Notes under the pieces: model-generated
What the model was told of the DNA's origin: nothing
The model's database searches: none
The model's input: only the letters and a program-made list of their open reading frames with translations
Part shown: one piece after another, positions 1 to 7,929 of the stretch
How positions within the stretch are numbered: position 1 is the stretch's first letter
Layout of the letters: every line of letters begins with the position of its first letter
IMG/VR virus record: IMGVR_UViG_2690316273_000016
Source: a virus
Taxonomy: Duplodnaviria > Heunggongvirae > Uroviricota > Caudoviricetes
Direction: 5' to 3' (one strand)
DNA: 7,929 nucleotides
Made by a program: the position numbers and the translations under genes

Positions 1-1074
1 ATGGGAAGAGGGACACAACCTGAACGCGTTAAGCTGGGAAATTATCCCGATCTGAGTCTGAAAGCAGCCAGGGAAAAAGCCGCCCAGTGTCGCGCATGGC
101 TGGCTGAGGGGAAAAATCCACGCTATGAACTGAATTACACCATGCAGGAAGCGTTAAAGCCTGTAACGGTTGGCGATGCGCTCACCTATTGGCTTGAGTC
201 GTACGCAAAGGAAAAGCGCACAGATTACGAATCACTGAAAAGCCGGATCAATAAAAACATAATCACCAAAATTGGTGCTATGCCGCTGGATAAATGCGAG
301 CTACGGCACTGGCTGGCCTGCTTTGACCAGGTGGCAAAGCGAACACCTGTTACTGCCGGATTCGTGCTACAGACATGCAAACAGGCGCTTAAGTACTGCC
401 GGAGGCGGCGCTATGTAATCAGTAACGTTCTCGATGATCTGAACGTAGCGGACGTTGGGAAAAAACCGGATATAAGCGAACGTGTCTTAAGCAATAAAGA
501 GCTGGGCGAATTATTGCAGGCACTGGACAAAAAAATATTTTCCCCCTACTACATCGCGCTAATCCGCCTCCTGATTGTGTTCGGATGCCGGACGGTCGAA
601 CTTAGGTTATCGGAGATCGGCGAGTGGGATTTTACCGAAATGCTCTGGACCGTTCCGAAGGAGCACAGCAAAACGAAGGTAGCCATATTCCGGCCTATAC
701 CGGAAGCAATACTGCCGTTCATCACGCAGCTGGTGGAGCAGAACAGGCACACGGGCTTATTGCTGGGGGAAGTGAAACAGGAGGCCAGCGTATCGCAGTA
801 TGGAAGATTAGCGCACAGGAGGCTTAATCACCCCCACTGGTCACTGCATGACATCCGGCGCACCTTTACAACCATGCTGAACGATTTAGGCGTTGATCCG
901 CATGTCGTGGAGCAGCTTACAGGACACCAGATGCCAGGGATGCAACGAGTCTATAATCACTCCCGTTATCTGGATGCGAAACGCAATGCGCTGGATATGT
1001 GGACGGAGCGGTTAGGGATACTGGCGGGAGCACATGAAAACGTAACCGCACTACCAGCAGCCAGAAGAAAATAA
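1..1074 (+). CDS. int: P4-family tyrosine integrase (site-specific recombinase), 5'-partial
   Basis: Open frame runs from the window edge to TAA at 1072-1074. Translation carries tyrosine-recombinase catalytic features: HxxR box (WSLHDIRRTF), a downstream His (LTGHQ) and a C-terminal Tyr (RVYNHSRY). The visible N-terminus (KLGNYPDLSLKAAREKAAQCRAWLAEGKNP) aligns with an internal part of the P4-type N-terminal domain, so about 50 residues are probably missing; the ATG at 1-3 is likely an internal Met. Confidence 0.9.
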   Translation: MGRGTQPERVKLGNYPDLSLKAAREKAAQCRAWLAEGKNPRYELNYTMQEALKPVTVGDALTYWLESYAKEKRTDYESLKSRINKNIITKIGAMPLDKCELRHWLACFDQVAKRTPVTAGFVLQTCKQALKYCRRRRYVISNVLDDLNVADVGKKPDISERVLSNKELGELLQALDKKIFSPYYIALIRLLIVFGCRTVELRLSEIGEWDFTEMLWTVPKEHSKTKVAIFRPIPEAILPFITQLVEQNRHTGLLLGEVKQEASVSQYGRLAHRRLNHPHWSLHDIRRTFTTMLNDLGVDPHVVEQLTGHQMPGMQRVYNHSRYLDAKRNALDMWTERLGILAGAHENVTALPAARRK

Positions 1075-1449: not shown

Positions 1450-1638
1450 GTGTTAAGCACAGATCGCTTTATACGTGAAAAAGAATGTCAGCAACTTACA
1501 GGCCTGAGCCGCTCATGTCGGTATCGCCTGGAGAAGACCGGACAATTCCCATCACGGCGTAAACTCGGCGGTCGTTCCGTTGGCTGGTCTTTATCCGAAG
1601 TTCTGGCATGGAAGGACAGCCGCGAGGCAGTTCACTAA
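1450..1638 (+). CDS. alpA: AlpA-family phage transcriptional regulator (HTH)
   Basis: 62 codons, GTG start at 1450 four nt after GGGGG (1441-1445), stop TAA 1636-1638. The segment LTGLSRSCRYRLEKTGQFPSRRKLGGRSVGWSLSEVLAW fits the AlpA family pattern (TG-S--Y---G-FP---LG-RSVGW--EV--W). Position directly downstream of a P4-type integrase is typical. Confidence 0.85.
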   Translation: MLSTDRFIREKECQQLTGLSRSCRYRLEKTGQFPSRRKLGGRSVGWSLSEVLAWKDSREAVH

Positions 1639-2608: not shown

Positions 2609-2812
2609 ATGAGAAATTATACCAGACACCCGCAAGGGCGGGACTCGTACAACCTGAATAAATACATCTGGCGTTTTATCGCCCTGAGCACGGCACAACC
2701 GCGCGTGATTACCATTGAGGCCACCAGCGAACAGGAAGCGCGTCAGCAATCTCCTGATGGCTGCGTGATGGTATTCGCTGCCCGTATTCGCCAGGGGGAA
2801 CACCATGATTAA
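2609..2812 (+). CDS. Hypothetical small protein (67 aa), first gene of the rightward replication operon
   Basis: ATG at 2609 with GAGG 5-6 nt upstream; stop TAA 2810-2812 overlaps the next start (ATGATTAA). It is the only protein-like part of the 373-aa stop-free frame. An in-frame ATG at 2519 is possible but lacks an SD. Confidence 0.55.
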   Translation: MRNYTRHPQGRDSYNLNKYIWRFIALSTAQPRVITIEATSEQEARQQSPDGCVMVFAARIRQGEHHD

Positions 2813-3014
2813 CCTGTCACTTACCGACCTTAACCGCGTTCAGTTTCGTGAGAAATTTACCGGGCAGCTACTGGTCAATGTGGATAAAGGTCGCGTGGTG
2901 TGTAATTACCACCTGCCAGATGAAGCCATTGTCGCAACAAGGGAATCATTACAGGAACTCGCAGAACGTGCCGGAATGATTAATGCGAATATTCAGGGGG
3001 TGAGACATGCATAA
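2805..3014 (+). CDS. Hypothetical small protein (69 aa), paralog of the next gene
   Basis: ATG 2805 preceded by GGGG; stop overlaps the next start. Shares a motif block with the downstream ORF (TGQLLVNVDKGRVVCNYHL versus TGRVLVYLEKGRVKCQCRL). Confidence 0.65.
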   Translation: MINLSLTDLNRVQFREKFTGQLLVNVDKGRVVCNYHLPDEAIVATRESLQELAERAGMINANIQGVRHA

Positions 3015-3219
3015 TCATGAATCGCACTTACCTGTAGTGCTGAATGTGCCGTCAGATTATACGGGGCGCGTACTGGTGTATCTGGAAAAAGGCCGGGTTA
3101 AATGTCAGTGCCGTTTAATGGAAAACGAATTTATCAGCACTCTTGCGGGATTTTCTGAAATGCTCACTAAATCGGGTGTTAGTGCAGACCAGCTACGCGG
3201 GGGCGATTATGCGAAATAA
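3007..3219 (+). CDS. Hypothetical small protein (70 aa), paralog of the previous gene
   Basis: ATG 3007 six nt after GGGGG; overlaps the previous stop (ATGcaTAA). Shares the TG--LV---KGRV-C block with 2805-3014. Confidence 0.65.
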   Translation: MHNHESHLPVVLNVPSDYTGRVLVYLEKGRVKCQCRLMENEFISTLAGFSEMLTKSGVSADQLRGGDYAK

Positions 3220-3433: not shown

Positions 3434-3721
3434 ATGAAAAAGAAAAATTCTGGCTTTACTGCCAGCGGCCCCGCTCGGCCTGAAATCCGCCCCGGCGATA
3501 TTTTCCGGGATAACTATGGCGGCACGGTAACGATAAAAGGCGTGGCAGAACGGCGCATCACTTACCGCCGTGATGGCTACGAATATGACTGCGTGATGCC
3601 TGTTTATCAGTTCCGGCGTGATTTCACGCTGGTGGGCCATCGTAAAGCCGTAAATCAGAAACGTGCAGCAAGTCATATCCGCAAAATTCGTGAAATGCTG
3701 GTCGCAGGGGGTAAAAAATGA
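3434..3721 (+). CDS. Hypothetical basic protein (95 aa)
   Basis: ATG 3434 with GGAG 9 nt upstream; stop TGA 3719-3721 overlaps the primase ATG at 3718 (ATGA). Protein-like composition, basic C-terminus. Confidence 0.6.
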   Translation: MKKKNSGFTASGPARPEIRPGDIFRDNYGGTVTIKGVAERRITYRRDGYEYDCVMPVYQFRRDFTLVGHRKAVNQKRAASHIRKIREMLVAGGKK

Positions 3722-5532
3722 AACTGGCACCGAACGTAAAACAGCAGTCACGCGGCATAAAACACAAAGAAACAGAAGTCATTATTTTTGCGGGTAGTGA
3801 TGCCTGGTCACACGCAAAACAATGGCAGGAACATGACGCGCGTATGGCCGGAGATAATGAGCCTCCTGTGTGGCTTGGGGAGCAGCAGTTATCCGAACTG
3901 GATAAGCTGCAAATTGTGCCGGAAGGCAGAAAATCCGTGCGCATATTCAGGGCCGGATATCTTGCGCCAGTAATGATAAAGGCGATTGGTCAGAAGCTGG
4001 CGGCGGCAGGCGTACAGGATGCAAATTTTTATCCTGAGGGTATGCACGGTCAGGAGGTGCAGAACTGGCGCGGATATCTGGCCCGTGAGCGCCAGAATCT
4101 TTCTGATGGTCTGGTGATTCAGCTTCCTGTTAAGAAAAAAACAGAAGACAGCGCCGCACCACTGGCGCTTAACCAGATGGGAGCAAGCCAGCGCGGCGAA
4201 GTTCTCCTGGCACATTATGGCGGTGAACTGGCGATTCATGCCGACTCTGACACTGTTCACCATTACAACGGCGTTGTATGGGAGCCGATTCAGGATAAAG
4301 AGTTACAGCGTGCTATGGCGCAGATTTTCATTGATGCGGAGATCAGCTATTCGCAGAACGCCATTAAATCGGCGGTCGATACCATGAAGTTAAGTTTGCC
4401 TGTAATGGGGAATACAGCCCGTAACCTGATTGGATTCAGTAACGGGGTATTTGATACCAGAACAGGTAATTTTCGGGAGCATAACAAAAACGACTGGTTG
4501 TTAATTGCCAGTGAATTACCTTTCAGCCCACCAGCAGAGGGGGAAACGCTGGCAACACATGCGCCGAATTTCTGGAAGTGGTTACGCTGCTCGGTGGCAG
4601 AGAATGACCGCAAGACGGATCGCGTGCTGGCTGCATTATTCATGGTGCTGGCGAACCGGTACGACTGGCAGTTATTCATTGAGGTAACAGGTCCAGGGGG
4701 AAGTGGTAAAAGCGTGATGGCGGAGATTTGCACTATGCTGGCGGGTAAGGCCAACACAGTATCGGCAAGCATGAAGGCGCTGGAAGATGCAAGGGAACGC
4801 GCGTTAGTGGTTGGCTTTTCGCTGATTATCATGCCGGATATGACCCGCTACGCTGGTGATGGCGCAGGAATTAAGGCCATTACAGGCGGTGACAAGGTGG
4901 CAATCGACCCGAAGCATAAAGCCCCCTACTCAACACGCATTCAGGCGGTCGTGCTGGCGGTGAACAATAACGCCATGTCATTCAGTGACCGCAGCGGGGG
5001 GATCTCACGTCGTCGGGTGATATTCAATTTTTCGGAGGTTGTACCGGAGAACGAGCGCGACCCCATGCTGGCAGAAAAAATAGAAGGAGAGCTGGCGGTT
5101 GTGATTCGCCATCTGCTTACTCGTTTTTCTGACCAGGACGAAGCTAAACGCCTGCTGTATGAGCAGCAGAAATCAGAAGAAGCTCTGGTGATAAAACGCG
5201 AGGGCGATTCGCTGGTGGACTTCTGTGGCTATCTCATGTCGTCGGTAATGTGTGATGGTCTGTTAGTGGGTAATGCCGAAATTATTCCGTTCAGTCCGCG
5301 CAGGTATCTTTATCACGCCTATCTGGCATATATGAGGGCACACGGATTCGGTAAACCTGTAACACTGACGCGCTTCGGTAAAGATATGCCGGGGGCAATG
5401 GCGGAATATGGCAGGGAGTATATAAAACGGAAAACGAAGCACGGTTTGCGTTCAAATGTGACACTGACAGAGGATTCAGAAGACTGTATGCCATCATGTG
5501 CATCGGTCACAAATGACGACAGCAAAAATTAA
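3718..5532 (+). CDS. P4-family phage/plasmid primase C-terminal domain protein (D5-like SF3 NTPase/helicase); element replication initiator
   Basis: 604-aa ORF. Walker A GPGGSGKS (…FIEVTGPGGSGKSVMAEI…). Flanking blocks (NGVFDTRTGNFREH…, …ITGGDKVAIDPKHKAPYS…, …RRRVIFNFSEVVPENERDPMLAEKI…) match the conserved layout of P4-family primase C-terminal / D5_N-type proteins. SD GGGGG precedes the start. Confidence 0.88.
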   Translation: MKLAPNVKQQSRGIKHKETEVIIFAGSDAWSHAKQWQEHDARMAGDNEPPVWLGEQQLSELDKLQIVPEGRKSVRIFRAGYLAPVMIKAIGQKLAAAGVQDANFYPEGMHGQEVQNWRGYLARERQNLSDGLVIQLPVKKKTEDSAAPLALNQMGASQRGEVLLAHYGGELAIHADSDTVHHYNGVVWEPIQDKELQRAMAQIFIDAEISYSQNAIKSAVDTMKLSLPVMGNTARNLIGFSNGVFDTRTGNFREHNKNDWLLIASELPFSPPAEGETLATHAPNFWKWLRCSVAENDRKTDRVLAALFMVLANRYDWQLFIEVTGPGGSGKSVMAEICTMLAGKANTVSASMKALEDARERALVVGFSLIIMPDMTRYAGDGAGIKAITGGDKVAIDPKHKAPYSTRIQAVVLAVNNNAMSFSDRSGGISRRRVIFNFSEVVPENERDPMLAEKIEGELAVVIRHLLTRFSDQDEAKRLLYEQQKSEEALVIKREGDSLVDFCGYLMSSVMCDGLLVGNAEIIPFSPRRYLYHAYLAYMRAHGFGKPVTLTRFGKDMPGAMAEYGREYIKRKTKHGLRSNVTLTEDSEDCMPSCASVTNDDSKN

Positions 5533-5544
5533 ACTTATGGAATA

Positions 5545-5775
5545 ACTGTTCACCACTGTTCACCCTGTTATAAATATCTTTTATATCAGTACATTATAGG
5601 GTGAACAGTTATTTGTGAACTGTTCACCAAACTATTCACTGTTCACCTTTTTGATTATTTATTGAGCTTTAAGGGTGAACAGTGGTGAACAGTTGGTGAA
5701 TAGTTTTTGTGAAACTGTTCACCCCTTAACATTATGAATAAAAAGGGAAAATCTCAAAAGGTGAACAGGTGAAGG
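5545..5775. repeat. Iteron array in both orientations (CTGTTCACC / GGTGAACAG) with AT-rich spacers; putative replication origin
   Basis: Forward TGTTCACC at 5547-5554, 5557-5564 (two tandem 10-bp ACTGTTCACC units), 5621-5628, 5640-5647, 5716-5723, plus variant CTATTCACT at 5632-5640. Reverse GGTGAACAG at 5600-5608, 5674-5682, 5684-5692, 5760-5768, variant GGTGAATAG at 5695-5703, half-site GTGAAC at 5615-5620. Lies directly 3' of the primase gene. Confidence 0.6.
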
Positions 5776-5819
5776 GTTAAAATGCAAAAATTTTATTTTA
5801 TTGCTGTGAGGTAAAGCCT

Positions 5820-6065
5820 GTGACAACGAAGCACGCAAAAAAACCACAATCTCACGCCCTTGATTTGACAGAACACTGGCTGAGGGTGGCGATAAAAATC
5901 ATCGACCGCAACGCGGGAGAAGGGTACGCAAAAGCACATCCCGAACTGATAAGCGCATTCATGACCACGGCGGCAGCAAACTTTGCCACGCTGACAGAAC
6001 GGGAGATTGCCGAAGCGGAACAGGTGACAACCATCAACGTTAAAACCGGAGAGCAGACAGCATGA
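5820..6065 (+). CDS. Hypothetical protein (81 aa), first gene of the accessory operon
   Basis: GTG start at 5820, GAGGT (5808-5812) 7 nt upstream; stop TGA 6063-6065 overlaps the ssb ATG at 6062 (ATGA). No family recognised by eye. Confidence 0.5.
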   Translation: MTTKHAKKPQSHALDLTEHWLRVAIKIIDRNAGEGYAKAHPELISAFMTTAAANFATLTEREIAEAEQVTTINVKTGEQTA

Positions 6066-6487
6066 CAGCACAGATAGCGGCTTACGGGCGGCTGGTGGCT
6101 GACCCGCAGTTAAAGACCACCAGCAAAGGGACACAAATGGCGATGGCGAGTATGGCGGTTCCCCTGCCGTGCAGCCAGGCAGATGACGGAACGGCGACGA
6201 TGTGGTTATCTGTCCTGGCGTTTGGCAGACAGGCCGACGCACTGGCAAAACACCACAAAGGCGAACTGGTGAGCGTGGCGGGTAACATGCAGGTGAGCCA
6301 GTGGACAGGCCAGAACGGGGAAACGCGGCAGGGCTGGCAGGTTATTGCAGACAGCGTAATCAGTGCGCGAACGGCGCGACCGGGCGGCAAAAAAGGTCAA
6401 CAGGGCCAGGCCACTGACGCACTGAACAGGGCAAAACAACAGACAAGCCAGCACGATGACCCGTACGGGGATAACATACCGTTTTAA
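6062..6487 (+). CDS. ssb: Single-stranded DNA-binding protein (SSB), OB-fold with acidic C-terminal tail
   Basis: 141 aa. N-terminal and core blocks parallel canonical SSB (IAAYGRLVADPQL resembles VILVGNLGQDPEV; MWLSVLAFGRQADALAKHHKGELVSVAGNMQVSQWTGQNGETRQGWQVIADSV resembles the SSB L45/OB core). A low-complexity G/Q-rich linker precedes a C-terminal …DDPYGDNIPF matching the SSB partner-binding tip (D-I-P-F). Confidence 0.85.
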   Translation: MTAQIAAYGRLVADPQLKTTSKGTQMAMASMAVPLPCSQADDGTATMWLSVLAFGRQADALAKHHKGELVSVAGNMQVSQWTGQNGETRQGWQVIADSVISARTARPGGKKGQQGQATDALNRAKQQTSQHDDPYGDNIPF

Positions 6488-6523
6488 TTCACAACAGCGA
6501 ACAGAGTAATTACAGGGGAAGGC

Positions 6524-7054
6524 ATGACAACGCTGACCATTAACCGGAAGCCGAAAGGCATTTACGGCACGCCGCAGAAAACGACGCAGGCGGCGCAAGA
6601 GCAGGATAAAACCACATCGGCGCATAAAGTGATACCCGGCAATCAGAACGCACAGCAGAAGCCCACAGGGGCGACACCGTGGCAGCATATGACCAAAAGG
6701 CAGCGCAAAAACCGCCGACGCGTTAACCGCCTCACTGAGATGTGGCCTGACTTATTCAGCCATAAAGCACCGAAGCCGCTTAAGGTGGGGATATTCGACG
6801 ACCTGATGCAGGATATCGCCGTCAGGGGGCTGGCATTCGGGCCGGGGGTATTACGTGCGACGCTGGCATCCTATGCGCAGTCTCCGCGCTATTACCGCGC
6901 CCTGATAGCTGGTGGCGCACGTTACGATCTGAAAGGCCAGCCATGTGGGGAAGTGACACCACAGGAACAGCAGGAGGCAGAAACACGGCTGATGGTGCTG
7001 AATGAGAAGCACAAGCGCCAGCGCCGGGCAGCAAAGGGGGATACATGCCAGTGA
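6524..7054 (+). CDS. FinO/ProQ-domain protein (putative RNA chaperone)
   Basis: 176 aa. Basic, low-complexity N-terminal half, then a block MWPDLFSHKAPKPLKVGIFDDLMQDIAVRGLAFGPGVLRATLASYAQSPRYYRALIAGGARYDLKGQPCGEVTPQEQQEAE that aligns by eye with the F-plasmid FinO core (WWPGLF…GIRDVLLEDVAQR…[40 protein letters not shown]). Stop overlaps the next ATG. Confidence 0.8.
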   Translation: MTTLTINRKPKGIYGTPQKTTQAAQEQDKTTSAHKVIPGNQNAQQKPTGATPWQHMTKRQRKNRRRVNRLTEMWPDLFSHKAPKPLKVGIFDDLMQDIAVRGLAFGPGVLRATLASYAQSPRYYRALIAGGARYDLKGQPCGEVTPQEQQEAETRLMVLNEKHKRQRRAAKGDTCQ

Positions 7055-7293: not shown

Positions 7294-7302
7294 AGCGATA
7301 AA

Positions 7303-7329
7303 GGCCCGGATTTTTTCCGGGCCTTTTTT
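7303..7329 (+). terminator. Rho-independent terminator closing the accessory operon
   Basis: Stem GGCCCGGA (7303-7310) / TCCGGGCC (7316-7323), loop ttttt, then TTTTTT (7324-7329), ten nt after the stop of the last ORF. Confidence 0.75.
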
Positions 7330-7347
7330 CAGGTTTTGTAAATTATT

Positions 7348-7417: not shown

Positions 7418-7566
7418 GGCGTGTGGCACTCAGACGTGAGCCGCCACAATGCCGCCTGACCCCCTGCGCGATGCCGGGTTGATCTGCGAGATGCCGAGAG
7501 TGTCGGGCGGCGCTCCCCCCGTGTTGGTTTCACGTCCTGAATCTTAACCAATGCGAGAAAACCTTC

Positions 7567-7929
7567 ATGAAGAAATTAATCGAACTCCGCCAGCAAAAAA
7601 CCGCCCTGAAAAACCAGATGCGATCCCTGCTGGAAAAAGCCGACAGTGAAAACCGCAGCCTGAACGATGACGAAGGCAAACAGTTTGATGAACTGCGTGC
7701 AAAAGCCGATTCCCTCGACACAGAAATTTCCCGCCTCGAGTCTGTGGCTGATGAAGAACGTAACCAGCCTGGTGTTCCCGTCGAAGATAAAATCACCAAA
7801 AATGAGCTACGCTCTTACATTCTGACCGGGGAAACCCGCAACCTGTCCGGCAGTGTTCCGGCTGATGGTGGTTATACGGTTATCCCGGAACTGAACAGAG
7901 AAATTATGCGTCAGCTTTCTGATGAGTCG
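7567..7929 (+). CDS. HK97-family major capsid protein, N-terminal 121 aa (3'-partial, runs off the window)
   Basis: Not in the ORF track (no stop inside the window). ATG at 7567, open in frame to 7929. Translation: a charged coiled-coil-like N-terminus (MKKLIELRQQKTALKNQMRSLLEKADSENRSLNDDEGKQFDELRAKADSLDTEISRLES…) followed by …PADGGYTVIPELNREIMRQLSDES, matching the characteristic GGYLVP-E---I--L motif near the start of HK97-fold capsid proteins. Confidence 0.7.
   Translation, partial: MKKLIELRQQKTALKNQMRSLLEKADSENRSLNDDEGKQFDELRAKADSLDTEISRLESVADEERNQPGVPVEDKITKNELRSYILTGETRNLSGSVPADGGYTVIPELNREIMRQLSDES

Follow-up and report, generated by a model that had tools for sequence, protein, structure and literature searches.

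A probable replication origin built from P4-type iterons in a capsid-forming chromosomal island of Escherichia coli

Is the dense field of short repeats immediately 3' of the rep gene in this viral record an origin of replication, as an earlier note on its letters had proposed, and if so, of what kind? The DNA analysed (IMG/VR record IMGVR_UViG_2690316273_000016; 7,929 bp, hereafter the window) belongs to a capsid-forming phage-inducible chromosomal island (cf-PICI) of Escherichia coli, in which int, alpA, rep and ssb are followed by a capsid/portal/terminase operon. Judged from sequence, positions 5546-5776 are very probably the replication origin of this island. The assignment was made because the repeats far exceed chance and their core, TGTTCACC, is the ori type 1 repeat of satellite phage P4; because the Rep protein is homologous to P4 alpha, including the origin-binding domain, and the repeat modules are colinear with the P4 ori core; because the homologous rep-ori of the island EcCICFT073 replicates a plasmid (PMC6092414); because the layout is kept in relatives, in which iteron core and a protein hairpin change together; because iteron columns are more conserved than spacers, and the spacers are among the least stable duplexes of the window; and because the island has only one iteron cluster and encodes its own single-stranded DNA-binding protein (SSB) beside it.

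The iteron field and the adjacent Rep protein

The octamer TGTTCACC was found 11 times in the window, with nine copies inside 5547-5767; across 200 dinucleotide-preserving shuffles the whole window held a mean of 0.28 copies and a maximum of 3. Nine exact copies of the 9-mer CTGTTCACC were mapped to 5546-5768 (223 bp), five on the + strand (starts 5546, 5556, 5620, 5639 and 5715) and four on the - strand (starts 5600, 5674, 5684 and 5760). A variant with one mismatch, GGTGAATAG, starts at 5695, and three with two mismatches occupy 5614-5622, 5630-5638 and 5768-5776. The field totals 13 sites, 10 of them within one mismatch of the 9-mer, in agreement with the earlier count of at least ten copies of an 8-9 bp core in both orientations over about 230 bp. 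Also borne out were the tandem phasing near 10 bp (10 bp for 5546/5556; 10 and then 11 bp for 5674/5684/5695), the palindrome at 5615-5627 (GTGAACtGTTCAC) and the AT-rich spacers between iterons (74-82% AT).

The field begins 14 bp past the stop codon of the open reading frame (ORF) at 3718-5532 (stop 5532, first iteron 5546) and leaves 44 bp between its end and the next ORF (5820). Its site map reads >> AT < >(>)> AT <<< > AT <<, that is, two iteron sets in opposed orientation flanking AT-rich DNA. Five of the 12 weakest 25-mers of the whole window, by duplex stability, fall in 5524-5802. The parts of the field are listed below; numbers after "iterons" are starts, with strand in brackets.

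5546..5776, both orientations: whole iteron field, 13 sites (repeat counts, site map)
5546..5647, - strand: left module, colinear with the P4 ori core when reverse-complemented; iterons 5546, 5556 (+), 5600 (-), 5614 (-, degenerate), 5620 (+), 5630 (+, degenerate), 5639 (+)
5565..5599: AT-rich spacer in the left module, 80% AT, holding the least stable duplex of the putative origin; candidate unwinding element
5648..5673: central AT-rich spacer, 81% AT, between converging triple-iteron arrays; candidate melting site
5674..5776, + strand: right module, colinear with P4 ori core 9309-9415 (BLAST and alignment); iterons 5674, 5684, 5695 (-), 5715 (+), 5760 (-), 5768 (-, degenerate)
5724..5759: AT-rich spacer in the right module, 75% AT, containing a conserved ATGAAT
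5777..5805: A-tract/T-tract segment AAAATGCAAAAATTTTATTTTATT directly past the last iteron pair (cross-genus alignment, low duplex stability)

The A-tract/T-tract segment is conserved across genera, and a counterpart, AAAAAAAACTTTTTT, follows each repeat of the P4 region crr; it may serve in unwinding, bend the DNA or act weakly as a promoter of the genes that follow. The remaining two exact copies of TGTTCACC stand alone within the rep coding sequence, at 4254-4261 (+) and 4959-4966 (-). Both were missing from all eight relatives checked and from P4 alpha; an internal site like oriII of P4 was rejected on that ground, and the two copies are probably due to chance or specific to the lineage.

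The classical iteron plasmid origins (RepA, pi and TrfA types) carry direct repeats of 17-22 bp in one direction together with DnaA boxes, whereas the units here measure 8-9 bp and point in both directions; within 5500-5850 no DnaA box (allowing one mismatch), no GATC and no IHF consensus was found, and the field was not placed in that class.

The adjacent gene and the domains of its protein are listed next.

3718..5532, + strand: Rep, a 604-aa initiator/superfamily 3 (SF3) helicase with D5_N, DUF5906 (SF3 ATPase) and a Pox_D5 C-terminal domain (Pfam)
3718..4125, + strand: N-terminal 136-aa domain of Rep, TOPRIM-like fold (weak fold match)
5203..5481, + strand: predicted origin-binding winged-helix domain of Rep, aa 496-588 (PDB 1KA8 match, E=8.3e-23)
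5425..5454, + strand: predicted beta-hairpin 'wing', aa 570-579, KRKTKHGLRS (alignment by iteron type; model residues 101-110)

Residues 137-600 of Rep are 49% identical to residues 313-776 of P4 alpha, which comprise its helicase and origin-binding parts, and PDB 1KA8 is the solved origin-binding domain of P4 alpha itself. The earlier description of the architecture as that of an initiator-bound origin is accordingly well matched, at the level of sequence, by iterons of P4 alpha type next to a protein with the corresponding binding domain. The same description had placed the field 3' of a primase/helicase gene. Its position and the helicase/initiator part of that statement stood; the primase part is doubtful, the primase domain of P4 being absent. 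RefSeq labels Rep a 'DNA primase family protein', but its N-terminus has no counterpart to residues 1-312 of P4 alpha, no match to the alpha primase domain (~300 aa in P4, against the 136-aa TOPRIM-like domain of Rep) and no match in Pfam. The 136-aa domain was also found fused to another helicase family, PF13481. Compared with the Rep of EcCICFT073 (55% identical overall), it is ~97% identical, the remainder of the protein ~45%. Because the domain is so conserved beside a diverged remainder, and also occurs on another helicase family, 'primase' was treated as a database label for an unsupported activity.

Related origins and the co-variation of iteron and protein

The GenBank record of P4 (X51522) gives TGTTCACC the label "ori type 1 repeat" and places it in the origin (9310-9413) as well as in crr (4291-4590), which lies directly 3' of the alpha gene, as the field here adjoins rep. 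The octamer is identical in the two elements. By BLAST, 5673-5730 of the window matched the annotated P4 ori with 81% identity over 58 bp. Multiple alignment placed three segments in colinear register, namely the right half of the field (5664-5790), its reverse-complemented left half (5662-5536) and the P4 ori core (9300-9425), and each contains a tandem triplet of sites, a single opposed site, an AT-rich spacer and a tandem pair. The layout of the P4 ori core is thus shared by both halves of the island field, which consists of two inverted modules of ~105 bp with the central AT spacer (5648-5673) between their converging triple arrays.

Several features set the island apart from P4. The P4 sites are split between ori and crr, ~4.7 kb apart, whereas those of the island are arranged as two head-to-head modules within 231 bp, and no second iteron cluster was found in the window or in the whole of a near-identical island, which leaves a single cluster in place of the bipartite cis elements of P4. 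The P4 type 2 repeats (CAYTTAAAGY, three copies) are absent, the three scattered one-mismatch matches in the window being at chance level. The island lacks sid, delta and psu and carries its own capsid genes, and it was classed as a PICI and not as a P4-like satellite. With the alpha type of origin it shares a multicopy TGTTCACC in both orientations and a cognate protein with the alpha-type C-terminal winged-helix domain; the N-terminal primase domain of that type is not present in Rep. P4 alpha binds such iterons; its biochemistry was reportedly described by Ziegelin et al. in 1993, and the P4 system is reportedly also treated by Yeo et al. in 2002. The PICI origin looks like the split ori/crr of P4 collapsed into one inverted-duplicate origin.

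A more P4-like homologue (L017; Erwinia rhapontici NZ_CP159261) has no iteron field directly past its gene. It carries two separate TGTTCACC clusters (locus positions 31-116 and 6487-6582), ~2.9 kb upstream and ~2.1 kb downstream, an arrangement that resembles the split ori/crr of P4.

In Gram-negative PICIs the origin directly follows the initiator gene on its 3' side and has AT-rich DNA with an iteron set on either side (Fillol-Salom et al. 2018, ISME J, PMC6092414). In the same study a plasmid carrying rep and ori of EcCICFT073 was maintained at the restrictive temperature, and deletion of rep or ori impaired this; the supplements hold no iteron sequences. For comparison, EcCICFT073 was located in NC_004431. 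Its origin occupies the same position, immediately 3' of rep. The sites follow one another in the same order and orientation, the short iterons forming two opposed sets with AT-rich spacers, and the gene context common to the two islands is int, alpA, an icd-like gene, DUF4222, rep, a small ORF and ssb. The two differ in the iteron (CTGTCTACC/TCTACC against TGTTCACC here), in the wing of Rep and the ~45% identity of its helicase and binding part, and in the capsid genes, of which EcCICFT073 has only capsid and decoration homologues, in contrast to the full capsid/portal/terminase operon of the present island. Origins of the EcCICFT073 type were found in 413-564 complete E. coli genomes. The field described here shares with PICI origins the place 3' of rep, the opposed iteron sets with AT-rich DNA and the homology to a validated rep-ori, which upholds the earlier comparison with PICI replication modules.

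The comparison with the pathogenicity islands of Staphylococcus aureus (SaPIs) is one of design. SaPI origins have 6-12 short iterons immediately downstream of rep around an AT-rich centre, the iterons being opposed on its two sides and read by a self-loading helicase through its C-terminal winged-helix domain (Qiao et al. 2022, PMC9371898). The logic is common to both, with no sequence homology to be expected. The SaPI Reps are placed with the MCM/pre-sensor II insert clade and that of the island is of D5/SF3 type, and SaPI iterons are 5-6 bp long as against 8-9 bp.

Relatives were collected by a genome scan with the Rep protein, which returned 72 loci in Enterobacterales and Pasteurellaceae, and repeats were measured as the most frequent 8-mer (one mismatch allowed) in the 450 bp past each stop codon. 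The closer relatives, from Raoultella, Kluyvera, Pluralibacter, Citrobacter, Klebsiella, Enterobacter, Serratia, Rahnella and Symbiopectobacterium, carried 8-12 repeats within ~230-260 bp past the stop, against 4-6 in a coding-DNA control. Site order and orientation as in the window were kept in 20 or more related loci. The earlier note would have abandoned its proposal had homologous elements kept the gene and lost the repeats; these elements retain the repeat layout. Homologues in Xenorhabdus and Photorhabdus have weaker downstream repeats (4-8 copies) of other sequences.

The iteron core itself differs among lineages. It is TGTTCACC in most relatives, TGTCTACC in E. ruysiae, Kluyvera georgiana and Enterobacter hormaechei, CTGTCCGC or CTGTCCAC in Serratia and CTCTACC in Symbiopectobacterium. 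When the C-terminal domains were aligned by iteron type they were near-constant save for one short segment, KRKTKHG-LRSN in the window, and this segment is replaced or five residues longer exactly in the lineages with a differing iteron. In a structure model the segment falls in a beta-hairpin following the helices and is predicted to form the wing of this winged-helix domain. Among loci of the TGTTCACC group, identity to the window was 76% in iteron columns and 54% in other columns (Mann-Whitney p=2e-7). A kept layout combined with co-variation of iteron and wing is what would be expected if the adjacent protein reads the repeats, and it is hard to explain otherwise.

Two cf-PICIs of other genera show the same arrangement. 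In LR881103 ('Escherichia phage vB_KppS-Ant'; L003) and in an island of Klebsiella pneumoniae ATCC 13883 (L010), Rep is 74% identical to that of the window and the same TGTTCACC iteron occupies 11 sites at the same positions, while the spacers have diverged to ~70% identity. In LR881103 rep is followed by capsid, portal and head-tail connector genes in the order seen in the island of the window, the difference being that no ssb or proQ stands between origin and capsid gene. This 16.5-kb record is filed as a phage genome and described as an 'induced prophage'; with its layout of int, rep, capsid, portal and connector, and an origin region that equals that of the ATCC 13883 island in repeat count and span, it is apparently a satellite deposited under the name of a phage.

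Proposed mechanism and competing explanations

The mechanism proposed here was modelled on the paradigm of P4 alpha and on that of the SaPI Rep (PMC9371898). Upon AlpA-driven induction, Rep would be made from 3718-5532 and would bind the TGTTCACC iterons through its C-terminal winged helix of P4 alpha type. Multimeric Rep would assemble on both inverted modules, melt one of the AT-rich spacers and load itself as the SF3 replicative helicase; island SSB would then coat the single strands while host polymerase III copies the DNA. Priming might be by host DnaG or, less likely, by the TOPRIM-like N-terminal domain of Rep. Rep binding, the melting site, helicase loading, directionality and the source of the primer were all inferred.

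P4 replication needs two iteron regions, ori and crr. This is the first of several points that weigh against the origin assignment or its details: the island has one region, so the P4 mechanism is not simply transferable. In addition, three or four AT-rich segments are candidates for the melted site; Rep is without the P4 primase domain, and the primer source follows from inference; the co-variation of iteron and wing, as read from the alignments, comes from about five lineages and not from many independent events; and the assignment of the wing depends on a model of medium confidence (predicted local distance difference test score ~70 in the hairpin and 63 overall).

The explanation that survives best beside an origin is a cis-acting replication enhancer like crr, in which Rep binds the field and synthesis starts at a separate origin. 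The field lies at the exact position of P4 crr, immediately 3' of an alpha-type gene, and its modules align with a portion of the P4 crr repeat unit; these modules are nevertheless closer to the P4 ori core than to crr. Neither the window nor the rest of the near-identical island holds a second TGTTCACC cluster, and relatives do not share the two copies inside rep. Moreover, rep of EcCICFT073 with the adjacent ori fragment suffices for plasmid replication (PMC6092414). An enhancer of this kind was judged improbable.

Slightly less probable again is an array that serves mainly as a transcriptional operator, whether for the 81-aa ORF, ssb and proQ downstream or for autoregulation, with replication starting elsewhere or depending on the helper phage. 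The field is intergenic in a co-directional operon, no terminator separates rep from the downstream genes, and weak -35/-10-like hexamers occur in the conserved A/T-rich stretch 5777-5805. A promoter and terminator scan of 5300-6000, however, gave nothing above chance, no + strand promoter exceeding the shuffle expectation, and the field therefore probably lies inside a rightward early transcript. The repeats, besides, are the origin iterons of P4, as defined there by biochemistry, and they co-vary with the origin-binding domain of Rep, and 13 sites in two inverted modules with AT spacers far exceed the need of an operator. Rep bound at the field may have a regulatory side effect on downstream expression.

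A chance or non-functional cluster, an array like clustered regularly interspaced short palindromic repeats (CRISPR) or a packaging (cos/pac) site has nothing in its favour save the presence of short repeats and can be dismissed: the enrichment exceeds all shuffles; the 9-bp units are irregularly spaced, point both ways and are not set apart by unique spacers, where CRISPR has direct repeats of 23-50 bp between unique spacers of similar length (the earlier note had likewise excluded a CRISPR array); HNH, TerS, TerL and the likely packaging site lie at the opposite end of the island, several kb off; the same layout recurs from genus to genus, and the iterons co-vary with the wing; and no Rfam family matched anywhere in the window.

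The island and what its probable origin means

The probable origin at 5546-5776 lies within the gene order of a PICI. The other genes of the window that bear on this are the following.

1..1074, + strand: tyrosine integrase, 5' end cut by the window edge (Pfam; RefSeq annotation of the near-identical island)
1450..1638, + strand: alpA, PICI activator and marker of Gram-negative PICIs (Pfam Phage_AlpA, E=2.7e-18)
5820..6065, + strand: 81-aa ORF, phrog_1231 (function unknown), first gene downstream of the putative origin
6062..6487, + strand: island SSB, replication module (Pfam SSB, E=4e-16)
6524..7054: ProQ/FinO-family RNA-binding protein, directly downstream of the SSB gene
7567..7929, + strand: start of a major capsid gene of HK97 type, inside which the window ends (translation; annotation of L001)

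Further small ORFs are present, one of them a DUF4222 gene, and the capsid gene at 7567 marks the element as a capsid-forming PICI. An island 99.4% identical to the window was located in E. coli AST240 between allE and allC. It continues with genes for major capsid, prohead protease, portal, head-tail connector, HNH, TerS and TerL, and no tail or lysis genes are present in its annotation. A PICI is expected to have int, alpA and rep, a length of ~14 kb, no tail or lysis genes and a specific chromosomal site; the element agrees with this, and its gene layout matches the cf-PICI described for EcCIEDL933 (10.1101/2022.09.08.507074). The 287-bp intergenic segment that holds the field was found in 668 of 5,426 complete E. 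coli genomes (coverage of at least 80%), and no feature is annotated at it among the matches listed.

Other parts of the window were noted in passing. A 373-aa ORF at 1691-2812 matches PHROG 'transcriptional repressor' families over its last 90 residues (phrog_6196, E=1e-49) and gave no match in Pfam or PADLOC; PADLOC likewise matched none of the unknown ORFs of the window. In AST240, where the island is otherwise 99% identical, the equivalent of this ORF is a truncated pseudogene plus a YlcI/YnfO gene, and the region is therefore a variable slot of the island. The adjacent, overlapping ORFs at 2805-3014 and 3007-3219 (69 and 70 aa) are members of one family, phrog_340 (unknown function), and thus point to a tandem duplication. 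In EcCICFT073 the place of the ProQ/FinO gene is taken by a PerC-family regulator. At 7300-7333 a strong hairpin with a T-run, AAAGGCCCGGATTTTTTCCGGGCCTTTTTT, closes the early/replication operon; from there to the capsid start (7567) the DNA is at first AT-rich and then forms a GC-rich leader of ~110 bp (7420-7530). The hairpin and leader could form the regulatory region of the packaging operon.

No new kind of system is revealed by the field. The kind of element, its position, its architecture and the P4 type 1 iteron are already published for Gram-negative PICIs and P4. A full-text literature search for TGTTCACC returned only unrelated primer sequences. Specific to the present case, as modest refinements drawn from sequence comparison, would be a cf-PICI Rep allele paired with the exact P4 octamer, the inverted duplicate of the P4 ori module, and iteron alleles that track the wing cassette.

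The finding supplies an annotation for an intergenic segment that is present yet unannotated in ~670 of 5,426 complete E. coli genomes, and it ties the P4 and PICI satellite families to one initiator/iteron system. Since the cf-PICI uses the exact P4 iteron, read by a homologous binding domain, it is conceivable, if rather doubtful, that P4-like satellites and PICIs with this Rep allele fire, titrate or block each other's origins when present in one cell, and that the alleles TGTTCACC, TGTCTACC, CTGTCCGC and CTCTACC reflect exchanges of the wing cassette by which such cross-talk is escaped. The pairing of iteron variant and hairpin amounts to a natural experiment on the specificity of DNA recognition and on the incompatibility of co-resident satellites.
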